Below, piece after piece: positions 2,792 to 62,282 of a DNA stretch of 64,000 nucleotides. Within the stretch, counting starts at the first letter, position 1. Every line of letters begins with the position of its first letter. The stretch comes from Candidatus Shapirobacteria bacterium (GTDB lineage Bacteria; Patescibacteriota; Microgenomatia; UBA12405): NCBI GenBank assembly GCA_041649835.1, contig JBAZML010000002.1:3318-67317 (forward strand), read 5' to 3'. The notes below the pieces were generated by a model. It ran no database searches and was not told the origin of the DNA. It saw only the letters and a program-made list of their open reading frames with translations. The position numbers and the translations under genes are program-made.

Positions 2792-3010
2792 ATGCAAATA
2801 GATGGCAAAGTAGAACAAATTAAAAGGTATAAAATTGTAGGGCCACATTGTTGTGATGAAATGGGTTATCTTTTAAGATCCTCGTCCTTTAATTCTAAAT
2901 CTGGTGCTATAATGGTCGGAGCTGATTTCTCTGTTGGTATAAAATATCTGGAAATAAGATTTTGCCCTTTTTGTGGAGAAAAAATAACATATAGTGAGAC
3001 ATATCAATGA
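2792..3010 (+). CDS. small zinc-ribbon protein
   Basis: CCDE...CPFCGE Cys pairs; stop overlaps next start. Confidence 0.3.
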   Translation: MQIDGKVEQIKRYKIVGPHCCDEMGYLLRSSSFNSKSGAIMVGADFSVGIKYLEIRFCPFCGEKITYSETYQ

Positions 3011-3954: not shown

Positions 3955-4049
3955 GTAGAACTTCGGAGACCTTTGGCTCCGACTACACACTATGCCGACT
4001 TTAAACACTTAAGACCTTACTTTTAGTCGGAAGTAAGAAAGGAAATGTT

Positions 4050-4910: not shown

Positions 4911-4932
4911 AAGTTTAGGATCTTAAACAACT

Positions 4933-4970
4933 AGAGGAGGGTAGAAGATTTTGCCCTCCTCTTTAATAAG
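4933..4970 (+). terminator. rho-independent terminator-like hairpin
   Basis: agaggaggg/ccctcctct 9-bp stem, 12-nt loop, followed by tttaataa. Confidence 0.5.
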
Positions 4971-4981
4971 GAAATTTAACT

Positions 4982-6007: not shown

Positions 6008-6143
6008 AGAGATTTGCAAAAATTGTAACTGGTTTAAAAATGGTCGGTGTCATAAGAATCCTAAGATTGAGGGGAAATCTCCTGATGATTTTTGTTCTTA
6101 TTGGGAACCTAAGGTGTTAAACGAAAAATTATGGTATTATTAG
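5994..6143 (+). CDS. small Cys-rich protein (49 aa)
   Basis: AAGGAG RBS, ATG at 5994; CKNCNWFKNGRCH...CSYW; overlaps end of GT gene in another frame. Confidence 0.3.
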   Translation: MSQNKEICKNCNWFKNGRCHKNPKIEGKSPDDFCSYWEPKVLNEKLWYY

Positions 6144-6225
6144 AAAATTGGATACTTAGCTATACTAATGATATTGTGGTCATTTTCTATTATATTTCAA
6201 AATCTGTGTTTTAAATAGTGTTGTT

Positions 6226-6864
6226 ATGAAAGTAAAGTTGTTTGATGAATTAATTATTCATGATAATTATGTGAGAATAGACGGAAAGCCGCTTGAGTCT
6301 ATTCTTGGTAAACACTGCGTATGGGTAGCCGCCCTCGAACTAAAAATTATACTTTCGTTTCAGGGCTATATTGAAAGTACTGCATGGCAGCGCGGAAGAA
6401 AAGCTAAAGAAATTAGAGAGCTGAATCTAAATGCTGATACTCCAGGGTTTACGATGGAGAGTCTATATAGTATAGCAAATGAAACCAGAATCCTACAGAT
6501 TTTAGCCGAAAAAAATATGTCTCCGTCTTCTAGGGGATATGCCTATTTCAAAACCGCTATGTCCACTATTTTTACAAAAGAATTATATACAGATAAGAAG
6601 GGTATGTTTGGGTATTATATACAAGATGCAAATAAACTAAGTCGAGGACAATATAACTTTGAGAAATTTAAAGAAGGGTTTTTAGATACTGGAAGAATTA
6701 AAGCAAATTCTGGGGCTATAGGCGATCTAGGAAAAAAAGCCGGGAATCTTGTTAATGGGTACTTAGTTGACGTAAGACGCACACGTGAGTATATGATGCA
6801 ATTTAATGGTCAATTAGATATTGATCCGCTATTAAGAACTTTAAACGTATTTAATAGGACGTAA
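6226..6864 (+). CDS. hypothetical protein
   Basis: 212-aa ORF, no recognised motif. Confidence 0.35.
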   Translation: MKVKLFDELIIHDNYVRIDGKPLESILGKHCVWVAALELKIILSFQGYIESTAWQRGRKAKEIRELNLNADTPGFTMESLYSIANETRILQILAEKNMSPSSRGYAYFKTAMSTIFTKELYTDKKGMFGYYIQDANKLSRGQYNFEKFKEGFLDTGRIKANSGAIGDLGKKAGNLVNGYLVDVRRTREYMMQFNGQLDIDPLLRTLNVFNRT

Positions 6865-6867
6865 TAT

Positions 6868-7212
6868 ATGAAGTTACTAACCAATAAGTTGATTTTTGGG
6901 CTTTTACAAAATTTCTGTAGATGGAAAAAATGGAATATAAAAAATTTTCCATCACACGATGATTGGAACGTAAAGTCATTTAAATGTAATTTATTAGGAT
7001 TTATTTTGGGTAGTCAAAAATGTCCTAATTGTAATAAAATTGATACACTTTATTCATATGAAAATTACGATTCTTTAACTATATTTTGTAGTGAATGCAA
7101 AACCGAGTATTACAGTATTACAAATGTGCTCCATTTTGGGGATTTTGGTATACACTCGGCGGCTATTATAAATCTTCCTGATATAGGAATTATTAAATCG
7201 AGGAATATATGA
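6868..7212 (+). CDS. hypothetical Cys-rich protein
   Basis: CPNCNK...CSECK zinc-ribbon-like pairs; stop overlaps next start. Confidence 0.3.
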   Translation: MKLLTNKLIFGLLQNFCRWKKWNIKNFPSHDDWNVKSFKCNLLGFILGSQKCPNCNKIDTLYSYENYDSLTIFCSECKTEYYSITNVLHFGDFGIHSAAIINLPDIGIIKSRNI

Positions 7213-7859
7213 CAAAAGATGAATTAAAACAACAAATTAATGTTTTAACTCAGTTCCCCCACAAAGAACGATCACAGCCGTACCAGAGCTATTACCTTAA
7301 AGACGAGGGTTACATAAAAGGCACTAGAGATACTTTATATCGTTTTGACATAATGAAGATCGAAAAAGATTTATCTGGAAAGTCTGTTTTAGATCTTGGT
7401 TGTCAACTCGGTACCATGGGCGTGGAAGCTTATAGAAGAGGGGCCGGCCCTGTTCTCGGAATTGAGTACGAAAAGGACTATGTAAGTTGTGCTAAAGCCT
7501 TAGCAAAATATAATGAATTTGATATTACTTTTATACAAGGCGATTTAACCAAAGGAGATGAAGTTCCTAAATTAGTGAATAAATTTTTTAATAATAAGCC
7601 GGTTGATGTGGTTCTAGCTTTGGCACTATATAAGCATGTAAAAGAGCATATGTTTAAAGTATTATCAAAAATAAAATTTAAAACCCTATATATTGAGTCT
7701 CATAATACTGGGACTGCCGGCCTAGAAACTCAACATGTTAAGGAAATGCTTTTATTTATGAAAAAGTATGACTATTCTCCTGTGTTTATCGACTTCGTCG
7801 CTGACAGAAGTCTGCGCGCTATTTGGAGAATTGATTGTCATGACAATGAGGTTCTATAA
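7209..7859 (+). CDS. class I SAM-dependent methyltransferase
   Basis: Motif I VLDLGCQLGTMG, motif II GIEYE, FIQGDL. Confidence 0.6.
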   Translation: MTKDELKQQINVLTQFPHKERSQPYQSYYLKDEGYIKGTRDTLYRFDIMKIEKDLSGKSVLDLGCQLGTMGVEAYRRGAGPVLGIEYEKDYVSCAKALAKYNEFDITFIQGDLTKGDEVPKLVNKFFNNKPVDVVLALALYKHVKEHMFKVLSKIKFKTLYIESHNTGTAGLETQHVKEMLLFMKKYDYSPVFIDFVADRSLRAIWRIDCHDNEVL

Positions 7860-8042
7860 AGCTGGAATAGGGGTTTTGATATTCTTTTACCATACAACTC
7901 ATTTAGAAATCTGTTTTATGTTCAGAAACATAAGATTTTGTCAAGACTATCCTATAGACTACGCTGGGTACTATAATTTTGTTACAGGTTAAAGTTTACA
8001 TTTTTGCACAATATGATTAAATAGTATTAAAGGAGATTGGTA

Positions 8043-8492
8043 ATGTTTGAAGATTTAGTTGATGAAAGTAAATTTAAGCACCTAGAAGAAGATTGTGGCA
8101 GTTGTACTGGGGAAGAATGTGCTGTTGGAGCGTGTGCAGCTTGTTCTGGTTCTTGTCAACCTGAAGTATTAGAAGATGAATTGCCCATGTCATTTTTACA
8201 ATCTCCAGACCTTAAACAACTGACACATCTTACTCTAGAAGATCAAATGTATCTAAAGTATCATGTTGGGTATAATATTCAAAAGTTTTATATGCCTGCA
8301 TTCGCATATGATTGCTTGGAGAAAATTACAGAATATCCATTTAATGGTTCTTATGGTATTTACAAATTTTGTAAAGGTGGCCCAAAATCCGTAGAAATTA
8401 TAGAAAAAGGTAATTTAAGAACTATTTTAATTAAAAGACAAAATAATGCTGGAAAACCTATAGAGTATATTGAATTAGTAGAATTATATTAG
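8043..8492 (+). CDS. hypothetical protein with Cys-rich N-terminus
   Basis: AAGGAG RBS then ATG 8043; CGSCTGEECAVGACAACSGSC cluster. Confidence 0.35.
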   Translation: MFEDLVDESKFKHLEEDCGSCTGEECAVGACAACSGSCQPEVLEDELPMSFLQSPDLKQLTHLTLEDQMYLKYHVGYNIQKFYMPAFAYDCLEKITEYPFNGSYGIYKFCKGGPKSVEIIEKGNLRTILIKRQNNAGKPIEYIELVELY

Positions 8493-8497
8493 GAACC

Positions 8498-8779
8498 ATG
8501 GAAATTTACCTATCTACGCAACTCAGTAACTTTACTATAATTTGTCATTTTAAAGTAGACGATTACTCTAAAATGGTAAAACGTCTTTTGTCAATAGTTC
8601 CATCAAACTTTCTTTTAGGAAAAGACCAATATTTTACTATCGAAGACTATTTTAAGTTGATTCCAGAATCAACACTAGGGCCATTTTTCTTTGATGGAAG
8701 AATGATATATGGAGGCTCTACTTATTATTTAGATTACGACTTAGAAGATGATGAGGTTTATCCGTTAAAAAGGAAATAG
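8498..8779 (+). CDS. hypothetical protein
   Basis: 93-aa ORF. Confidence 0.3.
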   Translation: MEIYLSTQLSNFTIICHFKVDDYSKMVKRLLSIVPSNFLLGKDQYFTIEDYFKLIPESTLGPFFFDGRMIYGGSTYYLDYDLEDDEVYPLKRK

Positions 8780-8785
8780 AAGGAT

Positions 8786-9577
8786 TTGTCTAAAAGAATT
8801 TTAATAACCGGCGGAAGTGGGTATATAGGAACAAATCTTACAACATTTTTAGAAGGTAAAGGCTTTGTTGTAGGTAATGTAGATAAGAAACTCGGAATAT
8901 ATGCAGAACATTTAAGACTTCCTAAAAAACATGATTTATTTGCTATAATTCATTTAGCTGCTCTCGCTGGGGTGGTAGAATGCGACCAGAATCCAGCACA
9001 GGCGGTTAAGGATAATATCATAGCTTCTATGAATATATTTTCTTTGGCTGCAGAACATAATATTCCGGTAATTGTAGCCTCCTCTCAGGCGGTTCAAAAG
9101 CCTATGTCTTCAGTGTACGCTTTCACAAAATACACAATGGAGCAGTACACCAAACACTATTTTGAAGCTAACATAAAACTATTAAGATTCGCTAATGTGT
9201 ATGGTGGTCAGAATTACCTGGAGACTAAAAATTCGGTTATAGCCTGCTTTGTCCAGAGGGCGCTAAAAAATGAACCGTTAGTAATAGACGGTACTGGTTC
9301 ACACTCGCGGGACTTTATCCACGTAGATGATATATCTAACGCAATTTTTCTGGCGATGTTTTGTAGACAATCCTGCGATTCTCCGGTGGACATAGGAACT
9401 GGTAAATTGACCACTATGAAAGAGCTTGCAGACATGATTTCCGATAACCAGACATATGACCCAGGAAATCCTAGAGCTATAAGTACCTCCCCAATAAATC
9501 CCAGCCCCGCAAAAGACTTTTTCGGATTCGAAGCAAAAATATCAGTTAAAGATTATATAAGTAGTTTAAAATTTTAG
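8786..9577 (+). CDS. NAD-dependent epimerase/dehydratase (short-chain dehydrogenase/reductase fold)
   Basis: N-terminal Rossmann ILITGGSGYIGTNL; YAFTK (YxxxK) catalytic motif. Confidence 0.65.
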   Translation: MSKRILITGGSGYIGTNLTTFLEGKGFVVGNVDKKLGIYAEHLRLPKKHDLFAIIHLAALAGVVECDQNPAQAVKDNIIASMNIFSLAAEHNIPVIVASSQAVQKPMSSVYAFTKYTMEQYTKHYFEANIKLLRFANVYGGQNYLETKNSVIACFVQRALKNEPLVIDGTGSHSRDFIHVDDISNAIFLAMFCRQSCDSPVDIGTGKLTTMKELADMISDNQTYDPGNPRAISTSPINPSPAKDFFGFEAKISVKDYISSLKF

Positions 9578-9990: not shown

Positions 9991-10563
9991 TTACATTTCG
10001 ATAAAAACTTCATATAATTCTGGACTCCAGTTTTCCGTAAGATATTTTTTGGCTCTATCCCAAAATTCCCGTACTGAACACTTGTACCATTCTTCGCACC
10101 CCACTCCTTTTACTGGAGAAAAGCGGCACCAAATTTCATCGGTCATTTTAAGATAGATTCTTTTATAATGTCTTTTAAATTTTTTGTTAAGAATGGTTCC
10201 TTGATACGCCCAATGAATGTCATATGCTGAATCATACCAAAAATTTTTTGATTTATAGTGTTTAACGTCTAATTTTTTAAATTCATTGAGTTTAAGAAGT
10301 TCTTCGGTTCCTAATTTAGTATGTAAGTCTTCTAAATTATTAAGTTTTTCCTGTTCCTCTTTCGTAAAGTCTAATCTTCCGTTACCACCACCTAAAAAAT
10401 GTAATTCAGAAGAAAACTGAATTGGAATAGCCCAGATTCCTCTTTTAGCTGGGGTAGTGTTTCCTTCTCTATGAGTTTGGTATTGACCATTAACTGGGCC
10501 CAGTCTCACAAAAATATGTTTTTCGCTAGGTTTTCTCATAGAACGTTTTCTGAAGTTCTTCAT
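9991..10563 (-). CDS. hypothetical protein
   Basis: 190-aa ORF driven by a minus-strand copy of the early promoter cassette. Confidence 0.35.
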   Translation of the reverse strand: MKNFRKRSMRKPSEKHIFVRLGPVNGQYQTHREGNTTPAKRGIWAIPIQFSSELHFLGGGNGRLDFTKEEQEKLNNLEDLHTKLGTEELLKLNEFKKLDVKHYKSKNFWYDSAYDIHWAYQGTILNKKFKRHYKRIYLKMTDEIWCRFSPVKGVGCEEWYKCSVREFWDRAKKYLTENWSPELYEVFIEM

Positions 10564-10600
10564 AATGGTTATTATACCATAATATGAAACTTTCTGAAAC
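10561..10600 (-). promoter_or_regulatory. early/middle promoter cassette (minus strand): GTTTCAG-N17-TGGTATAAT
   Basis: Reverse complement reads gtttcagaaagtttcatattatggtataataaccattATG. Confidence 0.5.
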
Positions 10601-10606
10601 CAGATT

Positions 10607-10614
10607 TATAAATA
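10607..10614 (+). promoter_or_regulatory. T4-type late promoter motif TATAAATA
   Basis: Exact TATAAATA ~48 nt upstream of ORF 10656. Confidence 0.45.
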
Positions 10615-10641
10615 TTATATTTACATTTTTCCACTATATAG

Positions 10642-10649
10642 TATAAATA
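10642..10649 (+). promoter_or_regulatory. T4-type late promoter motif TATAAATA (second copy)
   Basis: Exact TATAAATA 7 nt upstream of the ATG at 10656. Confidence 0.4.
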
Positions 10650-10655
10650 TAATAT

Positions 10656-11036
10656 ATGGACGACGTTTTCAATATACCAGAAGAAAAAGAGTCCCCAGAG
10701 GATTTACTAAGGGCAAACATAGAGAAAGCTAATGAAATATTAAATATAGCCATGTCTAATATTTCAGCTGGGCTGGCAACGCCGAGAATGCTAGAAGTGG
10801 CCGCCAAATTAGTGGACTCAGTTACAAACGCAGCAGAAAAATTAATTGGGGCCGGGTTCGATCTAGAGAGTTTACTTTTAAAAGAGCGTTTGATAAAATT
10901 AAAAGAAAAGGAATTAATGTTGAAATCTAATACGGACGGAGTCCCAAAAACTTTGAATCAGAACATAATCGTGAGTAGCAGAGAAGACCTTCTAAAGCTA
11001 TTTCAATCTAAAAAGGGGAATGAGAATGATGAATGA
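10656..11036 (+). CDS. hypothetical acidic/helical protein, first gene of PrkA operon
   Basis: 126-aa ORF overlapping PrkA start. Confidence 0.4.
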   Translation: MDDVFNIPEEKESPEDLLRANIEKANEILNIAMSNISAGLATPRMLEVAAKLVDSVTNAAEKLIGAGFDLESLLLKERLIKLKEKELMLKSNTDGVPKTLNQNIIVSSREDLLKLFQSKKGNENDE

Positions 11037-12975
11037 AAAGGATTTTAGAGAAGTTATTATTTCTCAAAGATCAAAATCAAAAGTAGAAGAATGGGCAGGT
11101 GCAGCTTTAGATTATTTGTATTTAGTAAAAGAAAATCCTGAGATTGCGCAATTTGCTCCTAGCAGATTGTATAATGCATTAATGAAATATGGTACAGAAC
11201 CTATCGACGATGATAATAAAATTAGAGGATATGAGGATCTTATAAAGTATAATTATTTTGATGATAAGATTTATGGTACTCAGGAATCTTTACATGATAT
11301 TATGAAATTTTTTAAGGCCTCTGCTCGTAGGACAGAAACCGGCAGAAGAATTCTTATTCTGGTAGGCCCAGTATCTTCAGGTAAAAGTACAATAGCTTAT
11401 ATTCTTAAAAGATGTTTAGAGAATGATGACACCCCAGCCTACGAGATTTCTGGGTGCCCAATCCACGAAGATCCCATTCATCTAATTCCTCTTGGGGACC
11501 GGCCATTTTGGGAAGAGCAACTGGGAATTAAAATAGAGGGCAGTCTATGTCCTATTTGCCAAATGAAAATTGACGAAGACTATAGAGGCGAATGGGAAAG
11601 AGTTCCTGTTAACAGATTCGCCTTTAATGAACAAAGAAGAGTTGGTATTGGTACTTTTCAGCCTTCTGATCCTAAGTCGCAAGATGTAAGTGAACTTATT
11701 GGAAGAGTTGATTATTCTAAAATGACTATGTACTCAGAAACTGATCCTAGGGCTTTTAAATTTAATGGTGAGCTTCAAGTAGCCAACCGCGGTATTATTG
11801 ATTTTATCGAACTTTTAAAGACTGATACTAAACTACTTTATGTTTTGATTACTGCAGCACAGGAACAACTCATTAAAAGTCCTGGCTTTCCTCAAATGTA
11901 TATAGATGTTATTTTATTAGCTCATACAAATGAGAGTGAATACTCGAGCTTTAAAGCTGATAAAAAGTCAGAGGCGATTCATGATCGTATGTATCCGATT
12001 ATGGTACCATGGAATCTTAGAGTAGATAATGAAATCCAAATCTATAAGAAACTGATTAAAGAAAGTGAATTTAAAAATATTCATATTTCTCCTTTAGCTC
12101 TAGAAGTAGCGGCTAAATTTGCAGTATTAACACGCCTTAAAAAGTCTACCAAAGTTTCTTCTCTTATTGAAAAAATGAGACTATATAATAATGAAGCACC
12201 TGAGGGATTTAAAAGAGAAGAGATCGATATTAAAGAACTTAGACAAGAAGGCAGAGAAAACGCCGAAGGTATGACCGGTATTTCTCCGAGATTTATTATG
12301 AATGCTTTGAATATCGCCTTAGCTTCTAAAGAAGACAAAACTTGTATCAATGCTTTGGATGTTATTCGTAGTTTGAATCACAACTTTGAACATCATATTG
12401 GATATACTCCAGAAGAAAAGGCAAATTACCAAGCTTTGTTACTCGCAGATAAGGATTCAGTATTAGCCGAATTTAAAACTTTAGCTAAAAAAGAAGTTCA
12501 ATTGGCTTTTATCTCTGCCTATGATGATCAAGTCCAGAACTTATTTGCTAATTATCTTAAGAACGCTTTAGCGTATTGCAAGAAAGAGAAAGTAAAGGAC
12601 GATGTTCTTGGAGAATTTTCTGATCCTGATGAAAAACTAATGAGAAGTATTGAAGAATCTATCGGAGTTCCTATTAACTCTGTTAAAGAATTTAGACAAG
12701 CTATTTTCGTGCAGAAGAGTTCTTGTCTTGAACGCGGAGAAAAGTTTGACTACACTACATATACTCCATTGAAAGAAGCTATTGAACATAAGTTAATGAA
12801 CGATCTTAAGAACGTGGTTTCTTTAACTCTTTGTGATCCTGCTAAATCTCAAGACAAAAAGATCGTAAAGAAGAGGCAAGAAGTTTTAGATACTCTTAAG
12901 GAACGTGGTTATTGCGAATATTGTGCTTACGCTTTGCTTCAGTATGTTGAAGCTTTACTACGGAAAGAATCGTAA
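11020..12975 (+). CDS. prkA: PrkA/YeaG-family serine protein kinase (AAA+ N-domain + kinase-like C-domain)
   Basis: Walker A ILILVGPVSSGKST, CPIHEDPIHLIP, GIGTFQPSDPKSQD, LLAHTNESEY; collinear with B. subtilis PrkA along ~640 aa. Confidence 0.9.
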   Translation: MRMMNEKDFREVIISQRSKSKVEEWAGAALDYLYLVKENPEIAQFAPSRLYNALMKYGTEPIDDDNKIRGYEDLIKYNYFDDKIYGTQESLHDIMKFFKASARRTETGRRILILVGPVSSGKSTIAYILKRCLENDDTPAYEISGCPIHEDPIHLIPLGDRPFWEEQLGIKIEGSLCPICQMKIDEDYRGEWERVPVNRFAFNEQRRVGIGTFQPSDPKSQDVSELIGRVDYSKMTMYSETDPRAFKFNGELQVANRGIIDFIELLKTDTKLLYVLITAAQEQLIKSPGFPQMYIDVILLAHTNESEYSSFKADKKSEAIHDRMYPIMVPWNLRVDNEIQIYKKLIKESEFKNIHISPLALEVAAKFAVLTRLKKSTKVSSLIEKMRLYNNEAPEGFKREEIDIKELRQEGRENAEGMTGISPRFIMNALNIALASKEDKTCINALDVIRSLNHNFEHHIGYTPEEKANYQALLLADKDSVLAEFKTLAKKEVQLAFISAYDDQVQNLFANYLKNALAYCKKEKVKDDVLGEFSDPDEKLMRSIEESIGVPINSVKEFRQAIFVQKSSCLERGEKFDYTTYTPLKEAIEHKLMNDLKNVVSLTLCDPAKSQDKKIVKKRQEVLDTLKERGYCEYCAYALLQYVEALLRKES

Positions 12976-12976
12976 G

Positions 12977-14305
12977 GTAAAACATATGTCGATAGTTGTC
13001 CATGATTCTTGGGATCTTTCTGAAAAGTGTAGAAAAGATCGCCAACGCCATAATGAGAAAGTAGATAAGGCTATACGTGATGCTGCTAGAGATACTTTAG
13101 CTGATGAATCTATTATCACTAAACGTGGCGAACGTACTGTAAGAATCCCGGTAAAGGGTCTTAAGGAATGGAGATTTATTTTCGACCATAACCAAAAAGG
13201 AAAGAAAATTGGTGGAGCAGGCCAAGGTAAAATAAAGCCTGGAGATACGATAGCAAAAAAGAATCTAGATCAAGAAGGTAAAGCTGGAAATCAACCTGGA
13301 GAAGATATTATAGAAGTAGATGTGTCTCTAGAATATCTTCTCGAAATTATGTTTGAAGAACTAGGTTTACCTAATCTAGAAGACAAAGAAAAGATCGAGA
13401 ATTTAGTTTCTGCGGGATTTAAATTTGATTCTATAGCTAAAAAGGGTATTCATTCTCAGTTACATAAAAAGAAAACTATCCTAGAAAGTATCAAAAGATT
13501 TGCTGCAGATATACGAGAACTTATGTTAGCCGGGAAGTGTTCAGAAGATGATGCAAAAAGAGCCTACTACCAAGCTAAACATGATCTTAAAAAGGCTTTA
13601 AAAATAATTTTAACAAACTCTATTGATAAGTATATCGACCCTAATTTAATGAATCCTATGATTAATGATGAGGATCTTAGATTTAGGAGGGTAGAAGAGA
13701 ATTTTATTCCTCAAAGTAGGGCTGTAGTAATTTTAATGTGTGATTCTTCAGGTAGTATGGGACAAGAAAAGAAGTATTTAATGAGATCCTTATTTTTTTG
13801 GCTCACACAATTTGTCAGACAATGTTATGAATATGTGGAAATAAGGTTTATAACACATGATACAACAGCGAAGCTTGTGGACGAGGATGAATTCTTTAAG
13901 AAAGGAGAATCCGGGGGTACTTATTGTTATACAGCTTTTGAAATGGCGAATCATTTATTGCAAACTGTGTATCCTGTAGAAGCCTGGAACGCCTTTTGTT
14001 TATACTGCAGTGACGGTGACTCATGGGATGTGAAAAAAGATATAGCGGCTTTAAATCATCTTATAGATTCCGGACTAAGTTTGTTTGGGTACTATGAAAC
14101 TCATCCATCAGAAGTTAGGTTCTATGGATTTGATGATGGGGAACTACTCTCAGACATTATAGACGAATTTGATCTTAAAATTTTGGATATAGGTAAAAAT
14201 CAAGAGTTCTATAAAAATGTTGATAAACGAATGGTCGCAGGTATAATAAGAAGTAAAGAAGATGTATTTCCAGCACTCAAAGCTACTCTATATGGAAAGA
14301 GGTGA
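12977..14305 (+). CDS. yhbH: YhbH/YeaH-family protein (DUF444, vWA-like)
   Basis: N-terminal MSIVVHDSWDL...QRHNEKV as in YhbH; MCDSSGSMG MIDAS-like motif; start 2 nt after prkA stop. Confidence 0.85.
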   Translation, partial: VKHMSIVVHDSWDLSEKCRKDRQRHNEKVDKAIRDAARDTLADESIITKRGERTVRIPVKGLKEWRFIFDHNQKGKKIGGAGQGKIKPGDTIAKKNLDQEGKAGNQPGEDIIEVDVSLEYLLEIMFEELGLPNLEDKEKIENLVSAGFKFDSIAKKGIHSQLHKKKTILESIKRFAADIRELMLAGKCSEDDAKRAYYQAKHDLKKALKIILTNSIDKYIDPNLMNPMINDEDLRFRRVEENFIPQSRAVVILMCDSSGSMGQEKKYLMRSLFFWLTQFVRQCYEYVEIRFITHDTTAKLVDEDEFFKKGESGGTYCYTAFEMANHLLQTVYPVEAWNAFCLYCSDGDSWDVKKDIAALNHLIDSGLSLFGYYETHPSEVRFYGFDDGELLSDIIDEFDLKILDIGKNQEFYKNVDKRMVAGIIRSKEDVFPALKATLYGKR

Positions 14306-14308
14306 TAT

Positions 14309-14401
14309 ATGATAGGATTTATTTTAGGGTTATTAGGGGGTTTATTCGTCGGTCATTTTTTAAGTAAAATGCTTCAAAAACTGTTAAATAAAGAGAGGTG
14401 A
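14309..14401 (+). CDS. small hydrophobic peptide (30 aa)
   Basis: MIGFILGLLGGLFVGHFL...; below ORF-track cutoff. Confidence 0.25.
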   Translation: MIGFILGLLGGLFVGHFLSKMLQKLLNKER

Positions 14402-14404
14402 TTT

Positions 14405-14533
14405 ATGATTATTGACTGGTACAGGTTCGGCTTCTTTTGTCTTTGTTTATTTGGGTCATTCTTTGCTAGTGGTATTCATGGAATTATTTGGTTTATGGCA
14501 GGAATAACTTACGTAAATATATGTGAGAGTTAA
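14405..14533 (+). CDS. small hydrophobic peptide (42 aa)
   Basis: MIIDWYRFGFFCLCLFGSFFASGIHGIIWFMAG... Confidence 0.25.
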   Translation: MIIDWYRFGFFCLCLFGSFFASGIHGIIWFMAGITYVNICES

Positions 14534-14535
14534 AG

Positions 14536-15030
14536 ATGAAAAAATGTGAACTATGTGGGGAGACTAGGATATTTCAGGACGATCCTACTGATAATGGATA
14601 TAATTTTGTGGTCTTTTGTTGTTATTCTCAATATCATATAGAATTAAATGGAACACAAAAATTAATACATCAAGGTACCTTATGTAAAGACTTTATGTTA
14701 TATAAACTTAAAAATTCTAGTCCGCATAATGAGTTATCAAACTCTGAAGCAGAAAGGCTTGCGTGGCTTCTCGAAGAACTTGGAGAAGTACAACAAGCAA
14801 TAGGTAAAGTACAACAAGCAATAGGTAAAATACTTAGACATGGATATGATAGCAAATGGCCTCCTGATATAGGACCCTCAAATAGAGATAATTTAGAAAA
14901 AGAAATAAGAGATGTTATCAAGGTGTTAAGATTAATGGACAGATTTACAGATATTAATCTTATGAAAATCGAGAACTCAGTAACAGATGACTACTCTAGA
15001 TGTTATCTACATCACCAGGATCTATCATGA
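14536..15030 (+). CDS. MazG-like nucleotide pyrophosphohydrolase-like protein with N-terminal zinc ribbon
   Basis: CELCGE N-terminus; LLEELGEVQQAIGK ... NLEKEIRDVIKVL resembles all-alpha NTP-PPase EExxE/ExxD helices; contains in-frame 21-bp tandem duplication. Confidence 0.4.
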   Translation: MKKCELCGETRIFQDDPTDNGYNFVVFCCYSQYHIELNGTQKLIHQGTLCKDFMLYKLKNSSPHNELSNSEAERLAWLLEELGEVQQAIGKVQQAIGKILRHGYDSKWPPDIGPSNRDNLEKEIRDVIKVLRLMDRFTDINLMKIENSVTDDYSRCYLHHQDLS

Positions 15031-16481
15031 AACTGCAAGAAACTCAACGTCTTATTAAAATTGAAGAAAAAATTAAGCAAATCGCCTCTGAGGAGCTCGG
15101 CTTAACTTTTCCTAACATTGAGTTCGATTGTATTCCGGCAGAGAAGATGATCGAAATCATGGCTTGTAGAGGTCCTTCCCAAATATCTCATTGGTCTTAT
15201 GGAAAGAACTATGAAAAAATTAAAACAATCTATAATGAAATTACCCCCGATCTTCCTTATGAAGTTGTTATTAATTCTCTTCCACCAAGAGCATATCTTC
15301 TTAATAAGAATACCTTAGCAGTTCAGGCCTTGGTCATTGCTCATGTTTATGGACACGTTCATTTCTTTACCAAAAGTAAATTCTTTTCTAAACATAGAAG
15401 AGATATTATAGAACTCATGTCCAATGCCTCTGATAGGTTTAGTAAATACGAAAAGAAATATGGTATTGAAAACGTAGAACCCATTATTGATGCTGGGCTG
15501 GCTTTACAACAACATGTTAATCCTTATGACGAAGAGACTGAAGAACAGAAAAGAGAACGAGTTTATGAGCACCATAAAAAGAAAATGCAACCATTTTCTC
15601 ATGAGTTCTCAGATCTGATTAACACCAATGACCGAGACCGAAATCTTGATATAGAAGCGTATAATAGTCAATTGCGGCTAGCTCTTAAAAATCTAATTCC
15701 AGTAGAGCCAACGGAGGATATTCTACGGTTTATTATTGATAATTCTAGAAACCTTGATGATTGGGAAAAGGATATACTCGAAATTATTAGGGAAGAGGGT
15801 ATGTACTATCACCCAGTTATTAAGACAAAAACAATTAATGAGGGATTTTCCGTCTTTGTGCACCAAAAGATTATGCAAAGACTTTTTGAGTTAAAATTGC
15901 TTACCCAAGAAGAACACGGTCAATACGCGGTAAGTAATTCTCTAGTAAAAGCTCAATCTATGTTTTCCATTAATCCTTATCTAGTAGGGTCTAAGATGTT
16001 AGAAGATATTGAAGACAGATGGAATAAGGGCAAATTTGGAAAAGAATGGGAGAATTGCGAAAATATAACAATAAAAAAGAGTTGGAATAAGAATCTAGGT
16101 TTGGGTTGGAAAAAGGTTTTAGATGTATGTGAATCTTATAATGATTGGTTGTTTATGCAAGATTTTTTAACTACAGACTTAATAGAAGAGTTGGAATTAT
16201 TTATTTATCAGCAGATAGAGACCAGGGACGAAATTAGATTAGTTAGAACAGAACATACTCTAGAAGAGATTAAACAAATGATTTTAATGAGTTATGCTTT
16301 GTCTTATACCCCTAAAATAGAGGTTATAGAAGGAAGAAAAGAATTAATTTTAAGGCATGAATATTTTGGAAATAATCTAGATACTAAATATGCTATGGAG
16401 ACTATAAAACATGTAACAAGACTCTGGGGAGATAAAGTCTTGTTACATACTAGAGATGGAGAAGTTGAATTGGTTTTGTAG
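15027..16481 (+). CDS. spoVR: SpoVR/YcgB-family protein
   Basis: MKLQETQ...CIPAEKMIEIMACRGPSQISHWSYGKNYEKIK..., IAHVYGHVHFF, NEGFSVFVHQKIM all match SpoVR landmarks; ATGA overlap with preceding gene. Confidence 0.85.
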   Translation: MKLQETQRLIKIEEKIKQIASEELGLTFPNIEFDCIPAEKMIEIMACRGPSQISHWSYGKNYEKIKTIYNEITPDLPYEVVINSLPPRAYLLNKNTLAVQALVIAHVYGHVHFFTKSKFFSKHRRDIIELMSNASDRFSKYEKKYGIENVEPIIDAGLALQQHVNPYDEETEEQKRERVYEHHKKKMQPFSHEFSDLINTNDRDRNLDIEAYNSQLRLALKNLIPVEPTEDILRFIIDNSRNLDDWEKDILEIIREEGMYYHPVIKTKTINEGFSVFVHQKIMQRLFELKLLTQEEHGQYAVSNSLVKAQSMFSINPYLVGSKMLEDIEDRWNKGKFGKEWENCENITIKKSWNKNLGLGWKKVLDVCESYNDWLFMQDFLTTDLIEELELFIYQQIETRDEIRLVRTEHTLEEIKQMILMSYALSYTPKIEVIEGRKELILRHEYFGNNLDTKYAMETIKHVTRLWGDKVLLHTRDGEVELVL

Positions 16482-17694: not shown

Positions 17695-18150
17695 CTACCT
17701 CAATAATAAATCTATTCTATTAACAATATTCTTATCATCCCAGAGCTTTTTTCTTAATAAAACCCCAGCAGCTATTCCAGCCAGCCCTATTCCTATTTTT
17801 GTAGCTTTTGATACTTGGCCGCTTGAAGCTTCTCCAGTTTCTGCCCATTTAGCAAAGCTTTCACAGTTATTAAAAATTATGTTATATTCCGTTTTTTCTT
17901 TTAGTCTTGTGTATACCCTAGATAAGATCATAAACACAGAATCTCTATTTGGAGAATTTTCTACGACTTTCTTTCCACCGCGAAGAAATTCTTCCATTGT
18001 GGATTTTATAACTATTCCGTTCTTCTTAGTTAATACATGGGCATCTCCATAGTGAACAACTTTTTCTCCACGCACTTCTATTCCATGATGCCAATATATC
18101 GGTATCTTGGCTACTTTTCGTAAGACTTTAATATGATCGCCCACAGCCAT
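17695..18150 (-). CDS. permuted papain-like NlpC/P60 (LRAT/YaeF-like) protein with C-terminal membrane anchor
   Basis: His-box WHHGIEVRGEKVVHYG followed by NCESF (NCEHF-like Cys motif) in the permuted H...C order; C-terminal IGIGLAGIAAGVLL helix. Confidence 0.5.
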   Translation of the reverse strand: MAVGDHIKVLRKVAKIPIYWHHGIEVRGEKVVHYGDAHVLTKKNGIVIKSTMEEFLRGGKKVVENSPNRDSVFMILSRVYTRLKEKTEYNIIFNNCESFAKWAETGEASSGQVSKATKIGIGLAGIAAGVLLRKKLWDDKNIVNRIDLLLR

Positions 18151-18159
18151 TTAAAATCC

Positions 18160-18555
18160 TTACTTTAATTTAGTATAGTCTATCGCAGATAGTTCATTTT
18201 CTACTGCGTCTTCATAGTCAGGCATATCAAACAGCTCTTTTTTGATCCCGGCATGCTTATGTTGTTGCTTTAAATACATAAGAAAAGCATTTCTACATAT
18301 TGTAGTTATATACGCAAAAGCATTTGTTGTTTTTTCTGTATTAAAATTATACAAATATTTGCAACAGGTTAACAAAGCCTCGGCAACCATATCTTCTCTA
18401 TATGTGTAACCTGCAAATCTTCCACTACATCCTAAATTTGTCGCAATATCAAAAATCATAGAACCCAAATTCTCTGACATCTTTCCGCTTTCTTTATAAA
18501 GTTTTAATTCTTCTAATAGATCCTTATTTTTCACATAAAATTTAGCATTTGCCAT
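18160..18555 (-). CDS. T4 gp55-like late-transcription sigma factor
   Basis: KFYVKNKDLLEEL and FAGYTYREDMVAEALLTCCKYLYNFNTEKTTNAFAYITTICRNAF align with T4 gp55 ([61 protein letters not shown]). Confidence 0.75.
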   Translation of the reverse strand: MANAKFYVKNKDLLEELKLYKESGKMSENLGSMIFDIATNLGCSGRFAGYTYREDMVAEALLTCCKYLYNFNTEKTTNAFAYITTICRNAFLMYLKQQHKHAGIKKELFDMPDYEDAVENELSAIDYTKLK

Positions 18556-20269: not shown

Positions 20270-20277
20270 TATTTATA
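20270..20277 (-). promoter_or_regulatory. T4-type late promoter motif (TATAAATA on minus strand)
   Basis: tatttata on plus strand 15 nt upstream of fibre ATG; overlaps stop of upstream gene. Confidence 0.35.
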
Positions 20278-23200
20278 AATTTTTATTGATTCTATAGAAG
20301 CTCGTTATATCGAAATTGGATACTTTATATAGTTCACTTTTGATATACGTATAGAACATAAGTTCATCATCCTCATTAAAAAGCCCCATTTCGGTTATAG
20401 TAGTTTCCTCTTTATTACCATTGAAAAACCCCTTAATATAATATTTATTAGAGTCTTCAGTAATTATTAAATCGTAAATATACGAACTTATTAAGGTATT
20501 TTTCAGAGCATTATTTCCTATAGCATCATAGTTTTCAGTTGAAGCCCCGTTTCCGATCTCGATATATCCGTTTGACAAAGATTCTATTACATATTCTTTA
20601 GTATATAGTCCACCTAGACATGTTACAAAAGCGTATCCTGACTTTTGCTCTTCAAGAGTAATAGTAATCTGTTTTTTATCTCGAAACAAAGTTATTGTTT
20701 TTGGGAATATTTGTTTTAGTTCGTCATCATAAAGTTGAACTAGTACTCCCTTATGATCCAGGGTATGAGTTATAATCCATTCTGTAGAAGCAACAGATTG
20801 TACATATAGATAGTCACTATTTCTAATTTGGCAATATCCTAAAGTTGGTACATACCACGTAGAAGTCATTTGATCCACTTCTGTTATGCTAACATTAGAT
20901 GGCAACATTTGTTCTTTGTCTAAATAGAAGTAATAATCTGAGAGAACTGCACTAGTTTCTTGAGAATGAGTAAATCCCCAAGAAGCAGAAGCTTCATATG
21001 TATTTGTTAAGGTTTCTTTGGCGGCTCCTATTAGACAAAGACCAGAAAATGGAGAATCAAATTCTATAGAAACATTATTAGTATCTATTATTTTTACAGA
21101 AAGAGGAAATACCATTTCATAGGTATTATCATAACATTGTACTAAAACATTCTCTGTATTTAGACCATGAAATATGCTCCATTTAGAAGTTGGAACATAT
21201 TTTCTGTAAATGAACCCGGCAGAAGTAGACTCAGTATCTACACAACAATATGTATAGAAGTCGGCAACATTTCCGTATATATCATCATATGTTTTAATAG
21301 TTTCTTCACTAAAATCTGTTATTGGAGAAAGCAATAAAGAGTAATGAGAGTATTTGGAAGCCGGTCTAGAGACTTCAAGCTGATCATAAAGCATTAAAGC
21401 GTAATCTCTATTAAGAATATCTCTATCACATAAAGGCTCACAATTAAGGTCTATTTCAGCCTTATAATGCGGACTCATTAATAGACCGTCAGCATATGTT
21501 AATTGTCCTACTTCTCTTAGAATGGCCATGCCTGAAGCAGAGCTGGCAAAAGACGCTGTGACATTGTCTTTATCCACAGCTTGAAAATTCTCTGGGCTTC
21601 CTTGAAATAAAGTAGTACACACAGAATCAGCTATTCCGCAGGCAACATACCCAATGGCCGAAGTAGGAAATGTAACAACGATATTATTCTCGTCTACTAT
21701 TTCGACCTCAGGTGTATTATCTTTTACTGTAGGAATGAAACTTTGCTCTGCTACATAGATGATAACATCACCAGAAGTAGGGGTATTAAATAATATATTT
21801 GTCCAATTTTTATTATACAAATGTAATTCATCTGGAATAATCTCTATTCCACCACTATAAACTCTAACAACAATCTCATAATTGTCTAAATAGTGTTCTA
21901 CCCACCAACAAGCACTTGGAATCGTTTGAGTATATGTAAATACTGATTGATCATGATCTATTTGATATGTATTAATAAATATTTGTTCTGCTGCGGATAA
22001 AGAAACTGAAATAGTATCTGTTGACGCGCTAGCTGAAATAGTATTAAGCAGTCTTCTATTTAAATCATATACTTGAATAAAAAGGTTAGAAGAAGAGTAC
22101 TCGTTCATTAATTGAAATACAGTATTGTCTATTCCAGAATAAATGTTTGTAATAATATTCAAAGAATTAAGGTTGTGATTTATGTTCCAAATATTTGAAC
22201 GATATAAGAAGGCTTCAACATAATCTGGAATAGCCACTTCTAAATACCCAGCAAATGGATATGTAGAACTTAAGGCTAAGGTATTAGTATATATTGGTCT
22301 AATGTCTAGATCATTTACCGCGTTATAGTCGGTATCATATGCTTGAAGTAATTGGACGTCTCCACCACTAACAGTATAAGTGGACATCCAACCAGAGGAT
22401 AAAGGCAAAGTTAATGTTTCATCGGCTTCTAATAGAAAAATTCTGCCATTTTCTTCGCTAGCAAAGTTTACTTTCACAACATCATTTGTTATATTATATA
22501 AAGAAGAACAATTTGTTGTGGCTTCGCCCTCAGAATAAATTTGATATACTAAATTTTTGGAATTTAAAGTATGGGTTATGGTCCATGCAGACGTAGCCAT
22601 ACTTAAATAGAAGTCAGCCATTAATGCTTTTGAATCTAAATTATGTTCTATTTCCCATTCCATTTTGTCTATGGCTTGAATATGGAAATAGTCACCTGAT
22701 AGAGCAACAACTTGGGTACCATTATTGCTACTTATATTAGCAACTAAAATATCATTCATACCACTAGGCATTACTGTTTCAAATGTACAGATACCAGAAA
22801 TAGGAAGAGTAGTGGTATTATATGTAAAAGTTGTTGGGTAATATCCTTCTACTAATGGAGCAATTTGATTTAAATTATGAGAATGAAGTTCACTTATAGA
22901 TAGCAAAGGATTCATATACTGAGGCTTAGTTATGAGAGCAAATCCTGTAACCAGTTCATGAAATGTTAATAAAAGAGAACTAGAGTCTATACATGCAACT
23001 TCAGACGGACTAACAAGATTCATATAAGAATCAAAACATTGAATAACCGGAATCCTATCATCAAGGGAATGCGCAATATACCACCTATCAGAAGCATAAT
23101 TCTGTTTATGAATATAACAATTATCTAACGGAACATTAAACCCTTTACCAGAGGCCAGGGTATAATATTCTGCCCCTGTACAACCAACAGATAATGCATC

Positions 23201-60728: not shown

Positions 60729-62282
60729 CTATATTATTGAAGGGGTATTTAACCATGTCCAATCTGCGAGATCTGTTGAATCTGTGAGGATACCCCATAC
60801 ATCATCTTCCTCTTCTTTCTTACCAAACTCAAAACTTTCATCCAATATATCTAATGTTAAAGCATATGTTGCCCAATATAGAGCTGATACTAAATCATCA
60901 TTGAGATTATTACAAGTAAATTTTCCGCTTTTCTCTGAATAGTCATTCAACTGCTCTAACGTATCACGATCCAGAAGTTCAAGACTGTAATCCTCAATCA
61001 GCTTTTTCATTAACAAAACAGCCTTAGGTTTTGTATTTCTTGTTGCTCTTATTCCTAGATCTGTGGTCTTTGATCCGCAATTATAAAGTTTTGAATATTC
61101 TAGTTCCCACCAAAGTTGATTTACCACAGCAGAACCTTCTGCATTATTTTCACAAATAATCCAAGCCCCATTATAATAAACGCCAAGACGATTAAGTATC
61201 TCTGCATATTTATATACATCCACCATATTATCGTTAAATACTGCTACCTGTTTTAACTTAATAGGTTTTAAACTTATAACCTTTAAAATTTGGGTGCTGG
61301 AATAATGTTCTCCGGTTCCTTTAGCTGTATCAGCTCCAATAACATATACACAACCATCTATAGGCTTCTCATATACAAAAAGTTTACCATTTAAGTCCTT
61401 TGTAATTGGCTGTATATATTTATTAGAAATTTGCTTTAAAACTTCTGGATCAATTACTGTAGAGATAGAGCCGACGAAGGAACATTCAAATTCTTGATTA
61501 AAGAGGACCATATCATTATTCATATTCTTAAGTTGGTCTTCTTTCCACTTCTCGTCTCTTCCTTCTACATCACTCCAGATAGTTTTATAATACTTAAATT
61601 CATTTCTGTTATTTACAGCCCCATCCCATAGTTGGCCAAATAAATTAAACAGGCCTTTTGGAGTAGAAGCTATGATAATTTTAGCATCTTTTGAAGCAGA
61701 AACAGCTGGATAGTTAGACGCCCAAAACTCAGCGGCCAGCTTATCACTGGTCAAGTGAGCGAACTCATCTAATATTAGCAGTGTAATTGTTCTCCCCCTG
61801 AAGGCTGCTTTAGAAGTTGCTGCTGTTTGTATTGTACTTCCGTTCTCAAACGTTATTGAGGTCTCGTTATACTTAGTAATTCCAGGTTTTAGTTTTTCAT
61901 CAAGTTCCTCGTACATTAGTTTTATGCGCTGGAGGAAGTCTTGAGCTGATCTTGCAGAGTTTGATCCTATAGCGACATATGAATCTGGCCTAAATATTGC
62001 ATACCAAAGAGAATAGGATCCCATAGAAACCGTTTTTCCTTGTTGGCGCCCTGAGCAAATTATTACTCTATTGTTATTTAAAACTAAATCGAAAATATCT
62101 CTTTGATATTTTCTAGGAATAAATTCTACTCTACCGTCATCAGGGTGAAGAATGGTTACATGAGATAAGAAATAGTAAAAGTCTTCAGAACATCTAGTAA
62201 GTCGATCTATATCTTCCTTAGAATATTCGAGTTCAGTATTTGGTTTTTTTATAAAACCGAATTCATCGTATTTTATTGTCAT
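60729..62282 (-). CDS. terminase large subunit (gp17-like)
   Basis: Walker A CSGRQQGKT (gp17 SRQLGKT); size; upstream of portal. Confidence 0.8.
   Translation of the reverse strand: MTIKYDEFGFIKKPNTELEYSKEDIDRLTRCSEDFYYFLSHVTILHPDDGRVEFIPRKYQRDIFDLVLNNNRVIICSGRQQGKTVSMGSYSLWYAIFRPDSYVAIGSNSARSAQDFLQRIKLMYEELDEKLKPGITKYNETSITFENGSTIQTAATSKAAFRGRTITLLILDEFAHLTSDKLAAEFWASNYPAVSASKDAKIIIASTPKGLFNLFGQLWDGAVNNRNEFKYYKTIWSDVEGRDEKWKEDQLKNMNNDMVLFNQEFECSFVGSISTVIDPEVLKQISNKYIQPITKDLNGKLFVYEKPIDGCVYVIGADTAKGTGEHYSSTQILKVISLKPIKLKQVAVFNDNMVDVYKYAEILNRLGVYYNGAWIICENNAEGSAVVNQLWWELEYSKLYNCGSKTTDLGIRATRNTKPKAVLLMKKLIEDYSLELLDRDTLEQLNDYSEKSGKFTCNNLNDDLVSALYWATYALTLDILDESFEFGKKEEEDDVWGILTDSTDLADWTWLNTPSII

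Follow-up and report, generated by a model that had tools for sequence, protein, structure and literature searches.

The PrkA/YeaG, DUF444 (YeaH/YhbH) and SpoVR/YcgB families make up one of the most widely conserved prokaryotic trios still without known biochemistry. They are encoded by yeaG-yeaH-ycgB in E. coli and by prkA-yhbH together with spoVR in Bacillus, and in six bacteria yeaG, yeaH and ycgB were found to be mutual best cofitness partners with nitrogen- and carbon-source phenotypes (bioRxiv 10.1101/072470). The PrkA protein of B. anthracis is a clade-III, Yme1-like AAA+ ATPase that oligomerises with ATP and for which no kinase or protease activity was detectable in vitro; it is needed for sporulation and for tolerance of osmotic stress (PMC13001217). 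Phage-borne trios have been annotated since 2006, when those of phiYS40 were described as 'SpoVR' and 'serine kinase' (PMC8504454). Here we describe a complete trio in a 64,000-nucleotide stretch of DNA, hereafter the window (contig JBAZML010000002.1, positions 3,318 to 67,317 of the forward strand, assembly GCA_041649835.1), which was deposited within a metagenome-assembled genome (MAG) of Candidatus Shapirobacteria. Comparison with its relatives shows that this trio is not a one-off but a near-core, nearly universal and, as judged from its promoters, late-transcribed module of a whole T4-like phage clade, in which it typically lies between the genes for the small and large terminase subunits (TerS and TerL). 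Phage-borne trios being already known, this TerS-trio-TerL context is apparently what is new here: among the papers accessible to a literature search, none connected PrkA with T4-like phages or described the arrangement, and the near-core, late-operon, intein-bearing context of the phage trio is apparently undescribed so far.

In the window, the trio belongs to a group of seven tightly packed open reading frames (ORFs) on the plus strand, at 10656-16481:

10656..11036 (+), gp16-like small terminase (TerS), 126 aa; first gene of the operon, its stop overlapping the prkA start
11026..12975 (+), AAA+ ATPase of the PrkA/YeaG family, labelled 'serine protein kinase'; 649 aa, with a possible earlier start at 11020
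12986..14305 (+), DUF444/YeaH/YhbH-family protein (Pfam) with a vWA MIDAS motif, 439 aa
14309..14401 (+), ORF for a 30-aa hydrophobic peptide; lineage-specific
14405..14533 (+), ORF for a 42-aa hydrophobic peptide; conserved in the closest relative, L242
14536..15030 (+), MazG-like ORF, 164 aa, with a Cys-rich N-terminal extension (phrog_4856); lineage-specific insertion
15027..16481 (+), SpoVR/YcgB-family protein, 484 aa; its start overlapping the MazG stop (ATGA)

The family assignments proposed in an initial annotation of this DNA were borne out by full-length Pfam matches far above the cut-offs. PrkA matched both AAA_PrkA (PF08298; 4e-117, 391.7 bits against a cut-off of 25, covering model positions 4-357 of 358) and PrkA_C (PF06798; 7.5e-68, 229.4 bits against 25, 1-255 of 255), as well as PDB entry 9xip (6e-114); DUF444 matched PF04285 (2.4e-83, 281 bits against 27, 6-413 of 418), and SpoVR matched PF04293 (7e-101, 338.3 bits against 27, 4-404 of 407) together with SpoVR_C (PF24755; 3.9e-9, 36.8 bits against 27.6). 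The genes are intact and full-length; no frameshift or internal stop was found in any of the three ORFs, and the window PrkA is 100% identical to a database protein (P0001). All three proteins scored below the equivalog cut-offs of their cellular namesakes: PrkA that for E. coli YeaG (NF011999; 309 against 576 bits), DUF444 that for YhbH (TIGR02877; 325 against 468 bits, 5e-97) and SpoVR that for YcgB (NF008737; 224 against 679). By these scores, PrkA is a member of the family and not a YeaG equivalog.

The trio genes share strand and order, and their sole interruption is a 721-nt insert of three small ORFs between DUF444 and spoVR, namely the two small hydrophobic peptides and the MazG-like gene that had been reported there. 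The tight coupling by stop/start overlaps that was ascribed to the genes holds at two junctions, TerS/PrkA and MazG/SpoVR (ATGA), which are the only true overlaps; the remaining junctions are gaps of 2-10 nt with Shine-Dalgarno-like sequences. No convincing terminator was found inside the operon. The initial annotation omitted the gp16-like TerS gene (10656-11036) and the link to the terminase genes. This ORF matches phrog_445 (7.3e-8), as do 12 of the 27 members of its family, and the top PDB matches of the family profile were the small terminase of phage 44RR (3TXS/3TXQ, E = 0.005). The similarity is weak but consistent and, with the position of the gene in the packaging module, points to a gp16-type small terminase.

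PrkA homologues at 58-85% identity are abundant in metagenomes. A scan of IMG/VR with the single PrkA protein as query gave no match; an alignment-based scan was needed, and it recovered at least 110 viral contigs with relatives, 80 of which were fetched. The homologue contigs are T4-like and carry the genes in the order portal, prohead protease, scaffold, Gp23, small ORF, PrkA, DUF444, SpoVR, TerL and gp13. Mapping by tblastn placed the major capsid protein (MCP), TerS, PrkA, DUF444, SpoVR and TerL in this order in most of the 80 fetched loci, and a hidden Markov model of TerS found this gene immediately upstream of prkA in every T4-context locus for which upstream sequence was available. A second sample, which was anchored on TerL and is thus independent of the trio, comprised 68 loci with at least 1.8 kb of upstream sequence, and the trio was directly upstream of TerL in 64 of them. 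The same arrangement was present in many independent assemblies (JGI, ENA, Logan and NCBI). The occurrence of the trio in a T4-like phage, which had been regarded as unusual, therefore turns out to be near-core in a large uncultured clade, and complete trios are also found in Thermus phages and a jumbo phage. Nor does the trio show the profile of an auxiliary metabolic gene (AMG) or moron: it is host-derived, yet near-core, vertically inherited and placed inside the head/packaging module.

The exceptions to the adjacency of the trio and TerL include a close relative of the window (L170, 85% TerL identity), in which TerL is followed by the portal gene, as in the window; its sibling L169 (also 85% TerL identity) has the same TerL-portal order, with MCP also downstream. 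In the window, the minus-strand TerL gene precedes portal and MCP. Set against the order found in the clade, the order shared by the window, L169 and L170 indicates a rearrangement in the window's lineage, by which TerL has moved 44 kb away while TerS still overlaps prkA. In the closest relative (L242-L244, PrkA 85% identical), the order is TerS, PrkA, DUF444, a 41-aa peptide and SpoVR, followed by gp2 on the opposite strand. A subgroup of the T4-like clade (L027, L029, L072 and L086) carries the trio away from MCP, TerS and TerL. In a further relative (L004:4371-6222), a resolvase-like gene and an IS605 OrfB/TnpB (Cas12f-like) gene are inserted inside the head module, between the prohead protease and the scaffold/MCP genes.

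Members of the phage clade are 52-85% identical to each other, and the clade-wide identity of PrkA (52-64%) is like that of MCP (54-65%) and above that of TerL (43-54%). Within the clade, the Walker A motif of PrkA (GPVxSGKST) is kept at all positions but the variable x, no variation was seen at E262 or K265, and position 259 (E259) is acidic; the MIDAS residues of DUF444 (D253xS255xS257 and D343-G344) are 100% conserved, with T293 conserved at about 90%; and the HxxxH of SpoVR (H106, H110) is invariant. Of the alignment columns with at least 95% conservation among cellular homologues, the phage clade has also kept about 75% (143 of 188 in PrkA, 46 of 62 in DUF444 and 39 of 53 in SpoVR). In some relatives, inteins consisting of Hint and LAGLIDADG domains were found inside all three trio genes. 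One PrkA intein interrupts the P-loop itself (GPVSSGK^S; P0052) and another the invariant H^TN (P0111); that of DUF444 lies at KGE^SGGT beside the conserved SGGT stretch (L027:12456-15074), and that of SpoVR within the invariant NEGF(A/S) motif (L040:5497-8064). Similar elements occur in the head and packaging genes of the clade: the TerL of L016 (15527-17716) contains a LAGLIDADG endonuclease domain and the portal of L006 an intein splicing domain. Inteins normally persist at indispensable sites of indispensable proteins. The invariance of the motifs, together with the inteins lodged in them, thus indicates that function is retained in the phage copies.

The initial annotation had placed the operon behind two late promoter boxes and had pointed to a late sigma factor gene in the same genome. 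Both boxes and the sigma factor gene are present, and the features relevant to late transcription are as follows:

10607..10614 (+), TATAAATA box 1, a candidate late promoter of T4 type, 41 nt before the TerS-like start
10642..10649 (+), TATAAATA box 2, separated from the ATG by 6 nt; preceded by TTTACA (10620-10625), with 16 nt in between
18160..18555 (-), gp55-like late sigma factor (phrog_234, 1.3e-30), the factor expected to read TATAAATA promoters
60729..62282 (-), large terminase, TerL (phrog_2, 5e-43), 44 kb from the operon

Box 2 is too near the ATG for a normal leader; it might serve as the late promoter of a near-leaderless mRNA, or else belong to a sigma-70-like promoter. Across the window, TATAAATA is not over-represented (11 sites against 14.2 expected), and 6 of the 11 sites lie at most 60 nt upstream of a same-strand gene start, where 4.3% would be expected (P = 2.5e-6); the interior of the operon contains no site. 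The pattern is clearer among the non-redundant relatives, in which the background rate of TATAAATA is 0.023 per 80 nt. A site was present within 80 nt upstream of TerS in 22 of 54 loci and of TerL in 27 of 44, and in none of the loci upstream of PrkA (0/54), DUF444 (0/48) or SpoVR (0/45). The distance from the site to the start in these relatives is mostly 15-40 nt, and no conserved -35 element was found upstream of their TerL genes. The window, taken together with its relatives, shows the features of a T4-type late unit, which are a TATAAATA site 15-45 nt upstream of the start, no conserved -35 element and a genome that encodes gp55. Late, gp55-type transcription from TATAAATA, which had been suggested from the window, is therefore plausible, the comparative enrichment being much stronger support than the window alone. 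As the sites precede TerS and TerL and in no case one of the trio genes, the trio is most likely read as one late transcript with TerS, and TerL would have a late promoter of its own.

Two further features of these intergenic regions were observed. In the window (10620-10649) and upstream of TerS in five relatives (L050, L053, L056, L059 and L084), TTTACA lies 16-17 nt upstream of TATAA(T/A) and this pair overlaps the TATAAATA box; a sigma-70-type promoter might thus be superimposed on the late promoter, in which case the operon might also be read before the late phase. In six relatives (L050, L051, L052, L054, L057 and L062), the region between SpoVR and TerL contains a terminator-like GC-rich hairpin followed by a T-run, and the loop of this hairpin holds CATAAATA just upstream of TerL; terminator and late promoter seem to be combined here in a single element that separates the trio from TerL.

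The arrangement can be compared with the late packaging operon of T4, genes 16 and 17, with which it shares a gp16-like TerS, a T4-type TerL, TATAAATA promoters and a gp55 homologue. It differs from this operon in that the clade has about 5 kb of non-packaging genes between TerS and TerL, and in that the TerL of the window is unlinked. The comparison with the cellular module is similarly two-sided. The phage copy has the same three families at full length, in the order PrkA-DUF444-SpoVR seen in most bacterial operons, and keeps the Walker A, MIDAS and HxxxH motifs. In contrast to the cellular module, it is predicted to use a T4-type late promoter together with TerS, its proteins fall under the equivalog cut-offs, with PrkA 42-56% identical to the cellular proteins sampled, its SpoVR lacks D112 (see below), and in the window small genes separate DUF444 from SpoVR.

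A scan of the species genomes of GTDB identified the closest cellular PrkA proteins (54-56% identity) in MAGs of Fibrobacteria, Spirochaetia and Deltaproteobacteria, and a next tier (42-46% identity) in Bacillota, Acidobacteriota and Chloroflexota. Neighbour-joining trees of PrkA, DUF444 and SpoVR were largely congruent, and in each the T4-like phage sequences formed one clade. Whether the trio is host-derived or belongs to a phage clade had been posed as a question for phylogeny, and the trees give a part of each answer: there is one phage clade, and it is sister to cellular operons (L089-L092), with an IMG/VR contig (L074) placed between the two in the SpoVR tree. These sister loci have ordinary cellular neighbours, including glycosyltransferases, ornithine carbamoyltransferase and FtsH. 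The congruent trees and the single phage clade therefore point to one old capture followed by vertical descent, which indicates that the trio was taken up once from bacteria and has since been inherited vertically in the clade. In one of the sister loci, from a Fibrobacteria MAG (L090:8518-15919), genes for an aminotransferase and an ornithine/aspartate carbamoyltransferase flank the trio, which agrees with the phenotype on arginine as nitrogen source that has been published for E. coli mutants of yeaG, yeaH and ycgB.

Besides the T4-like clade, at least two other phage lineages, unrelated to it and to each other, carry complete trios: the Thermus phages and the jumbo phage Ralstonia RsoM2USA. 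Gene orders differ among the three. The Thermus phages phiYS40 (ORFs 56-59), TMA, Lalka, MN1 and phiLo carry the trio in the order DUF444-SpoVR-PrkA, at 30-36% identity, and RsoM2USA carries it in ORFs 28-30, at 28% identity; four huge uncultured phages also match, and these matches are unannotated. PHROGs families exist for all three proteins and are labelled as of unknown function. Like the trio of the window, those of the Thermus phages and RsoM2USA are complete; unlike it, they reside in phages that are not T4-like and have no coupling to TerS, their PrkA is only 28-36% identical, and the gene order of the Thermus phages is different. They are evidently separate captures. The location of the trio also varies among these phages. 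It lies between the portal/minor head protein and TerL in the Thermus phage Lalka27b and at most 3 kb from TerL in phiYS40, and among non-structural genes in MN1, phiLo and RsoM2USA. We therefore rejected the idea that linkage to the head module is universal for phage trios, which is contradicted by the latter three phages and by the L027/L086 subgroup of the T4-like clade. Thermus aquaticus, a relative of the host of the Thermus phages, has its own spoVR and prkA (PMC4605624).

The mechanism proposed here is a working model and not a result. In this model, the three proteins would act jointly, as in cells. PrkA, whose 'kinase' label is disputed, would be a hexameric clade-III AAA+ motor; DUF444 would be a vWA/MIDAS adaptor that holds a substrate or partner; and SpoVR would be a zincin-fold subunit that binds metal through HxxxH and processes or clamps the substrate. 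Together they would form an ATP-driven machine for protein remodelling or processing, akin to an FtsH/Yme1 split over several polypeptides with an adaptor in the style of MoxR-vWA systems, and it would be made late, from a gp55-type promoter, alongside the packaging enzyme. A vWA/MIDAS partner is shared with MoxR-vWA and chelatase-type machines, which are built of an AAA+ protein, a vWA protein and a third subunit. By analogy, the trio works most plausibly like these or like FtsH/Yme1. The likeness to the FtsH/Yme1 zinc proteases lies in PrkA being a clade-III AAA+ motor with a pore loop (PMC13001217); by sequence, however, the trio proteins belong neither to that family nor to the MoxR-vWA or chelatase families, and the peptidase-like part is a separate polypeptide without the Glu of HExxH.

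Structural data were available for PrkA (9xip), and no structure was found in the PDB for DUF444 or SpoVR. The AF2 model of SpoVR (pLDDT 87, pTM 0.83) places HxxxH on a long helix (residues 97-116) after beta strands, a zincin-like placement. A Foldseek search of this model against the PDB returned nothing significant, the SpoVR profile and a fragment around NEGF gave no peptidase match among PDB sequences, and a search of the literature on SpoVR as a zincin or metallopeptidase found nothing relevant. The 'MNEGFA' of SpoVR resembles the M1 peptidase motif 'WLNEGFA', a likeness that is tentative in view of the lack of any peptidase among the matches to PDB sequences.

With regard to the role of the trio in infection, we prefer a host-directed reading. 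We think that the target is most likely one or more host proteins of the starvation/dormancy response that the module serves in cells, and action on these would let a host that grows slowly or starves stay productive to the end of assembly and packaging. A target common to cells is favoured by the capture of the complete trio by unrelated lineages, by its position off the head genes in some of them, and by the retention of the cellular residues. Taken jointly with the well-supported structural and evolutionary claims, we give this host-directed reading an even chance of being correct. Several observations weigh against it or against the model on which it draws. The HxxxH of SpoVR is without a Glu after the first His, and thus without the catalytic Glu of HExxH. 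SpoVR residue 112 (HxxxHxD; about 15360-15362), an Asp that is 97% conserved in the cellular sample and kept in the sister cellular loci L090-L092, is replaced by A, N or H in the T4-like clade, phiYS40, RsoM2USA and Lalka27b. As D112 is replaced in all the phage lineages examined, phage SpoVR may work differently or be non-catalytic; the loss may also be a convergent change in phage copies, judged against a narrow cellular sample. The trees are neighbour-joining trees without support values, and the cellular sample consists of the best 80 loci of one scan. Finally, late expression and a slot in the head/packaging module are atypical for host-takeover genes and suit a morphogenetic role at least equally.

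Such a role, in which the trio has been co-opted as an accessory of head assembly or DNA packaging, either by chaperoning or processing capsid, portal or terminase proteins at the expense of ATP or as cargo loaded into the head, would account for the slot between TerS and TerL. That slot is kept in 64 of 68 TerL-anchored and most of the 80 PrkA-anchored loci, the TerS/prkA overlap persists in the window although TerL is 44 kb off, and the placement of TATAAATA suggests late co-transcription with TerS; the core-like conservation of PrkA, comparable to that of MCP, the inteins that the TerL and portal of the clade bear like the trio, and the proximity of the trio to portal/TerL in Lalka27b and phiYS40 fit as well. 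However, the L027, L029, L072 and L086 subgroup has the trio away from MCP, TerS and TerL, it lies among non-structural genes in MN1, phiLo and RsoM2USA, unrelated phages with unrelated capsid proteins have captured the same module, which points to a target common to cells, and the phage proteins keep about 75% of the cell-conserved residues, so that we consider a morphogenetic role unlikely, albeit with an appreciable chance. A bolder form of this idea, in which PrkA-YeaH-SpoVR would be an unrecognised split ATP-dependent metalloprotease or remodeller (with PrkA as unfoldase, YeaH as vWA adaptor and SpoVR as zincin-like subunit) recruited as an obligatory head-assembly/packaging factor and co-translated with TerS, has in our view a small chance; if true, it would give the cellular module its first defined substrate class. 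We regard as slimmer still the prospect that the trio is a conflict system, acting in superinfection exclusion, counter-defence or abortive-infection-like control, for example by using the AAA+/vWA/zincin machine to destroy a defence protein of the host. Conflict systems are commonly built from AAA+, vWA and metallopeptidase-like domains, large phages have captured the module independently several times, and its intergenic spacers are hot spots for the insertion of small genes. Yet a PADLOC scan of defence models gave no meaningful match, only one at the P-loop level (Csx3, 2e-4), the cellular homologues form operons of a housekeeping kind, which are inherited vertically, have metabolic phenotypes and are not islands, and the high conservation and stable vertical inheritance are unlike those of fast-turnover conflict genes.

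The initial annotation had pointed to manipulation of host sporulation or starvation physiology; on the sporulation reading, the host would be an endospore former, in which the trio would force or block assembly of the spore cortex or coat and MazG would tune (p)ppGpp/NTP pools. The homologues of B. subtilis and B. anthracis are indeed needed for normal sporulation (PMC13001217), the top score of DUF444 is with the YhbH model TIGR02877, and the second-closest group of cellular PrkA proteins includes many Bacillota. Nevertheless, every NCBIfam equivalog score is far under its cut-off, the nearest cellular operons are those of Fibrobacteria, Spirochaetia and Deltaproteobacteria MAGs, and the contig was binned with a Candidatus Shapirobacteria MAG and not with a Firmicute. 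The family is also present in archaea and in non-sporulating bacteria, where the trio is conserved with starvation and nitrogen-source phenotypes, and its carriers include phages of Thermus and Ralstonia, both non-sporulating. The MazG part of the proposal is no better placed, as that gene is lineage-specific, absent from an 85%-identical relative and marked by an odd duplication. Manipulation of sporulation is thus very improbable. More generally, a near-core late module with invariant motifs, inteins and at least two other captures suggests that phages use a core activity of the trio and not a sporulation-specific one, and the scoring of spoVR as a 'sporulation AMG' in viromics work (PMC8940887) is probably an over-interpretation. 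Lastly, the trio could be a recent, functionless host-derived moron with decaying genes, or the contig a phage-cell chimera, as its deposition within a bacterial MAG might suggest; this is effectively refuted by the full-length, intact ORFs, the recurrence of the arrangement in independent JGI, ENA, Logan and NCBI assemblies, the monophyly of the phage clade at 52-85% identity among members, the invariant catalytic motifs and the T4-like genes that flank the operon on both sides. The cultured carriers (the Thermus phages and RsoM2USA) offer a tractable route to the substrate of the trio.

The insert between DUF444 and SpoVR in the window was considered separately. The MazG-like ORF scored below the Pfam cut-off (PF03819; 17.5 against 22 bits) and matched phrog_4856 at 1.6e-9, with the MazG-like domain formed by residues ~65-160, the C-terminal ~100 residues. 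Its 334 homologues are mostly single-domain MazG proteins of ~100 aa, many of them named NTP pyrophosphatase and some with PF03819, and the metal-binding motifs (EExGE and a downstream acidic motif) are conserved in their alignment. Of the zinc-ribbon MazG-like NTP pyrophosphatase of the initial annotation, the MazG-like assignment thus stands at the superfamily level, whereas the zinc ribbon comes down to four conserved Cys in an N-terminal extension that was a low-confidence domain. The structure model is weak (pLDDT 70), and Foldseek against the PDB found nothing significant for it, the highest probabilities being for dCTPase/DCTPP1, with iMazG among the weaker matches. What the protein shares with the MazG of other phages, such as T4-like cyanophages, is a predicted NTP pyrophosphatase domain that is small and all-alpha, with EExGE followed by acidic motifs; unlike them, it is a single ~100-aa domain with a Cys-rich extension, falls below the Pfam cut-off and carries the following duplication:

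14786..14833 (+), 21-nt x 2.3 in-frame tandem duplication (VQQAIGK twice) in the MazG-like gene

This 7-aa duplication sits directly after EExGE, and no homologue has it, not even one of 87% identity (P0242); the enzyme may be impaired by it, or it may be a polymorphism of very recent origin. Neither the MazG-like gene nor the 30-aa peptide is present in the closest relatives (L242-L244, 85% PrkA identity), and MazG was absent from all other loci fetched to that point, so that the window's copy is confined to its immediate lineage. Because it is lineage-specific, carries the duplication and has weak fold matches, MazG is to be treated as a passenger outside the mechanism, and we rejected it as a part of the module on the strength of its absence from the 85%-identical relative; the proposed involvement of (p)ppGpp is not supported either. 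On sequence comparison, MazG and the 30-aa peptide are recent, lineage-specific passengers, with the profile of accessory genes (morons). The 42-aa peptide is homologous to a 41-aa ORF at the same position in the closest relative (L242:5158-5283), and is probably a real small membrane protein gene. Among 57 loci, the DUF444-SpoVR junction is usually tight (median 9 nt; more than 300 nt in 6), and the spacer between PrkA and DUF444 is a common site of insertion (median 275 nt; more than 300 nt in 24).

The remainder of the window shows it to be part of an uncultured, deep-branching T4-like myophage, by the genes that it encodes. As had been recognised, the phage is T4-like: the window encodes gp2, gp55, baseplate wedge and hub, and sheath, together with a Gp23-type MCP, a T4-type portal and a T4-type TerL, and T4-like genes lie on both sides of the operon. 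Its MCP is at most 38% identical to that of any cultured phage, the best match being Pelagibacter phage HTVC008M, and a blastn search of the region against 50,697 phage records gave no match at the DNA level. No tRNAs were found in the window, and hence no hint of the host from them. Proteins identical to those of the window are listed at NCBI under 'MAG: ... [Candidatus Shapirobacteria bacterium]', from a 95,161-bp contig (locus tag WC503_00675), and relatives from the same clade are labelled as Hodarchaeales archaeon and Bacteroidales. Given these unrelated taxon labels, we treated the MAG labels as binning noise: the T4-like phage contigs of this clade appear to be mis-binned into MAGs of unrelated taxa. 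A Shapirobacteria (CPR, candidate phyla radiation) host, as suggested by the label, was accordingly rejected, the binning not being informative.

Preceding TerL on the minus strand of the window is an ORF of 517 aa (62286-63839), for which neither Pfam nor PHROGs gave a match and which had no relative among the loci fetched to that point. Upstream of the operon, a plus-strand cluster (754-9577) holds methyltransferases (1856-2521 and 7209-7859), two glycosyltransferase-like proteins (3007-3954 and 4982-6007), a zinc-ribbon protein (4050-4910) and a nucleotide-sugar epimerase (8786-9577), and is a possible sugar- or DNA-modification module. Between gp2 and gp55 on the minus strand lies a gene (17695-18150) for a protein with an LRAT/NlpC-P60-type domain (PF04970, 3.5e-17) and a C-terminal hydrophobic segment. 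Adjoining the baseplate genes, also on the minus strand, is a gene for a 1299-aa protein (20273-24172) with four phrog_21918 repeats and with regions that match PHROGs annotated as HNH endonuclease and as virion structural proteins; it is probably a large fibre or structural protein.

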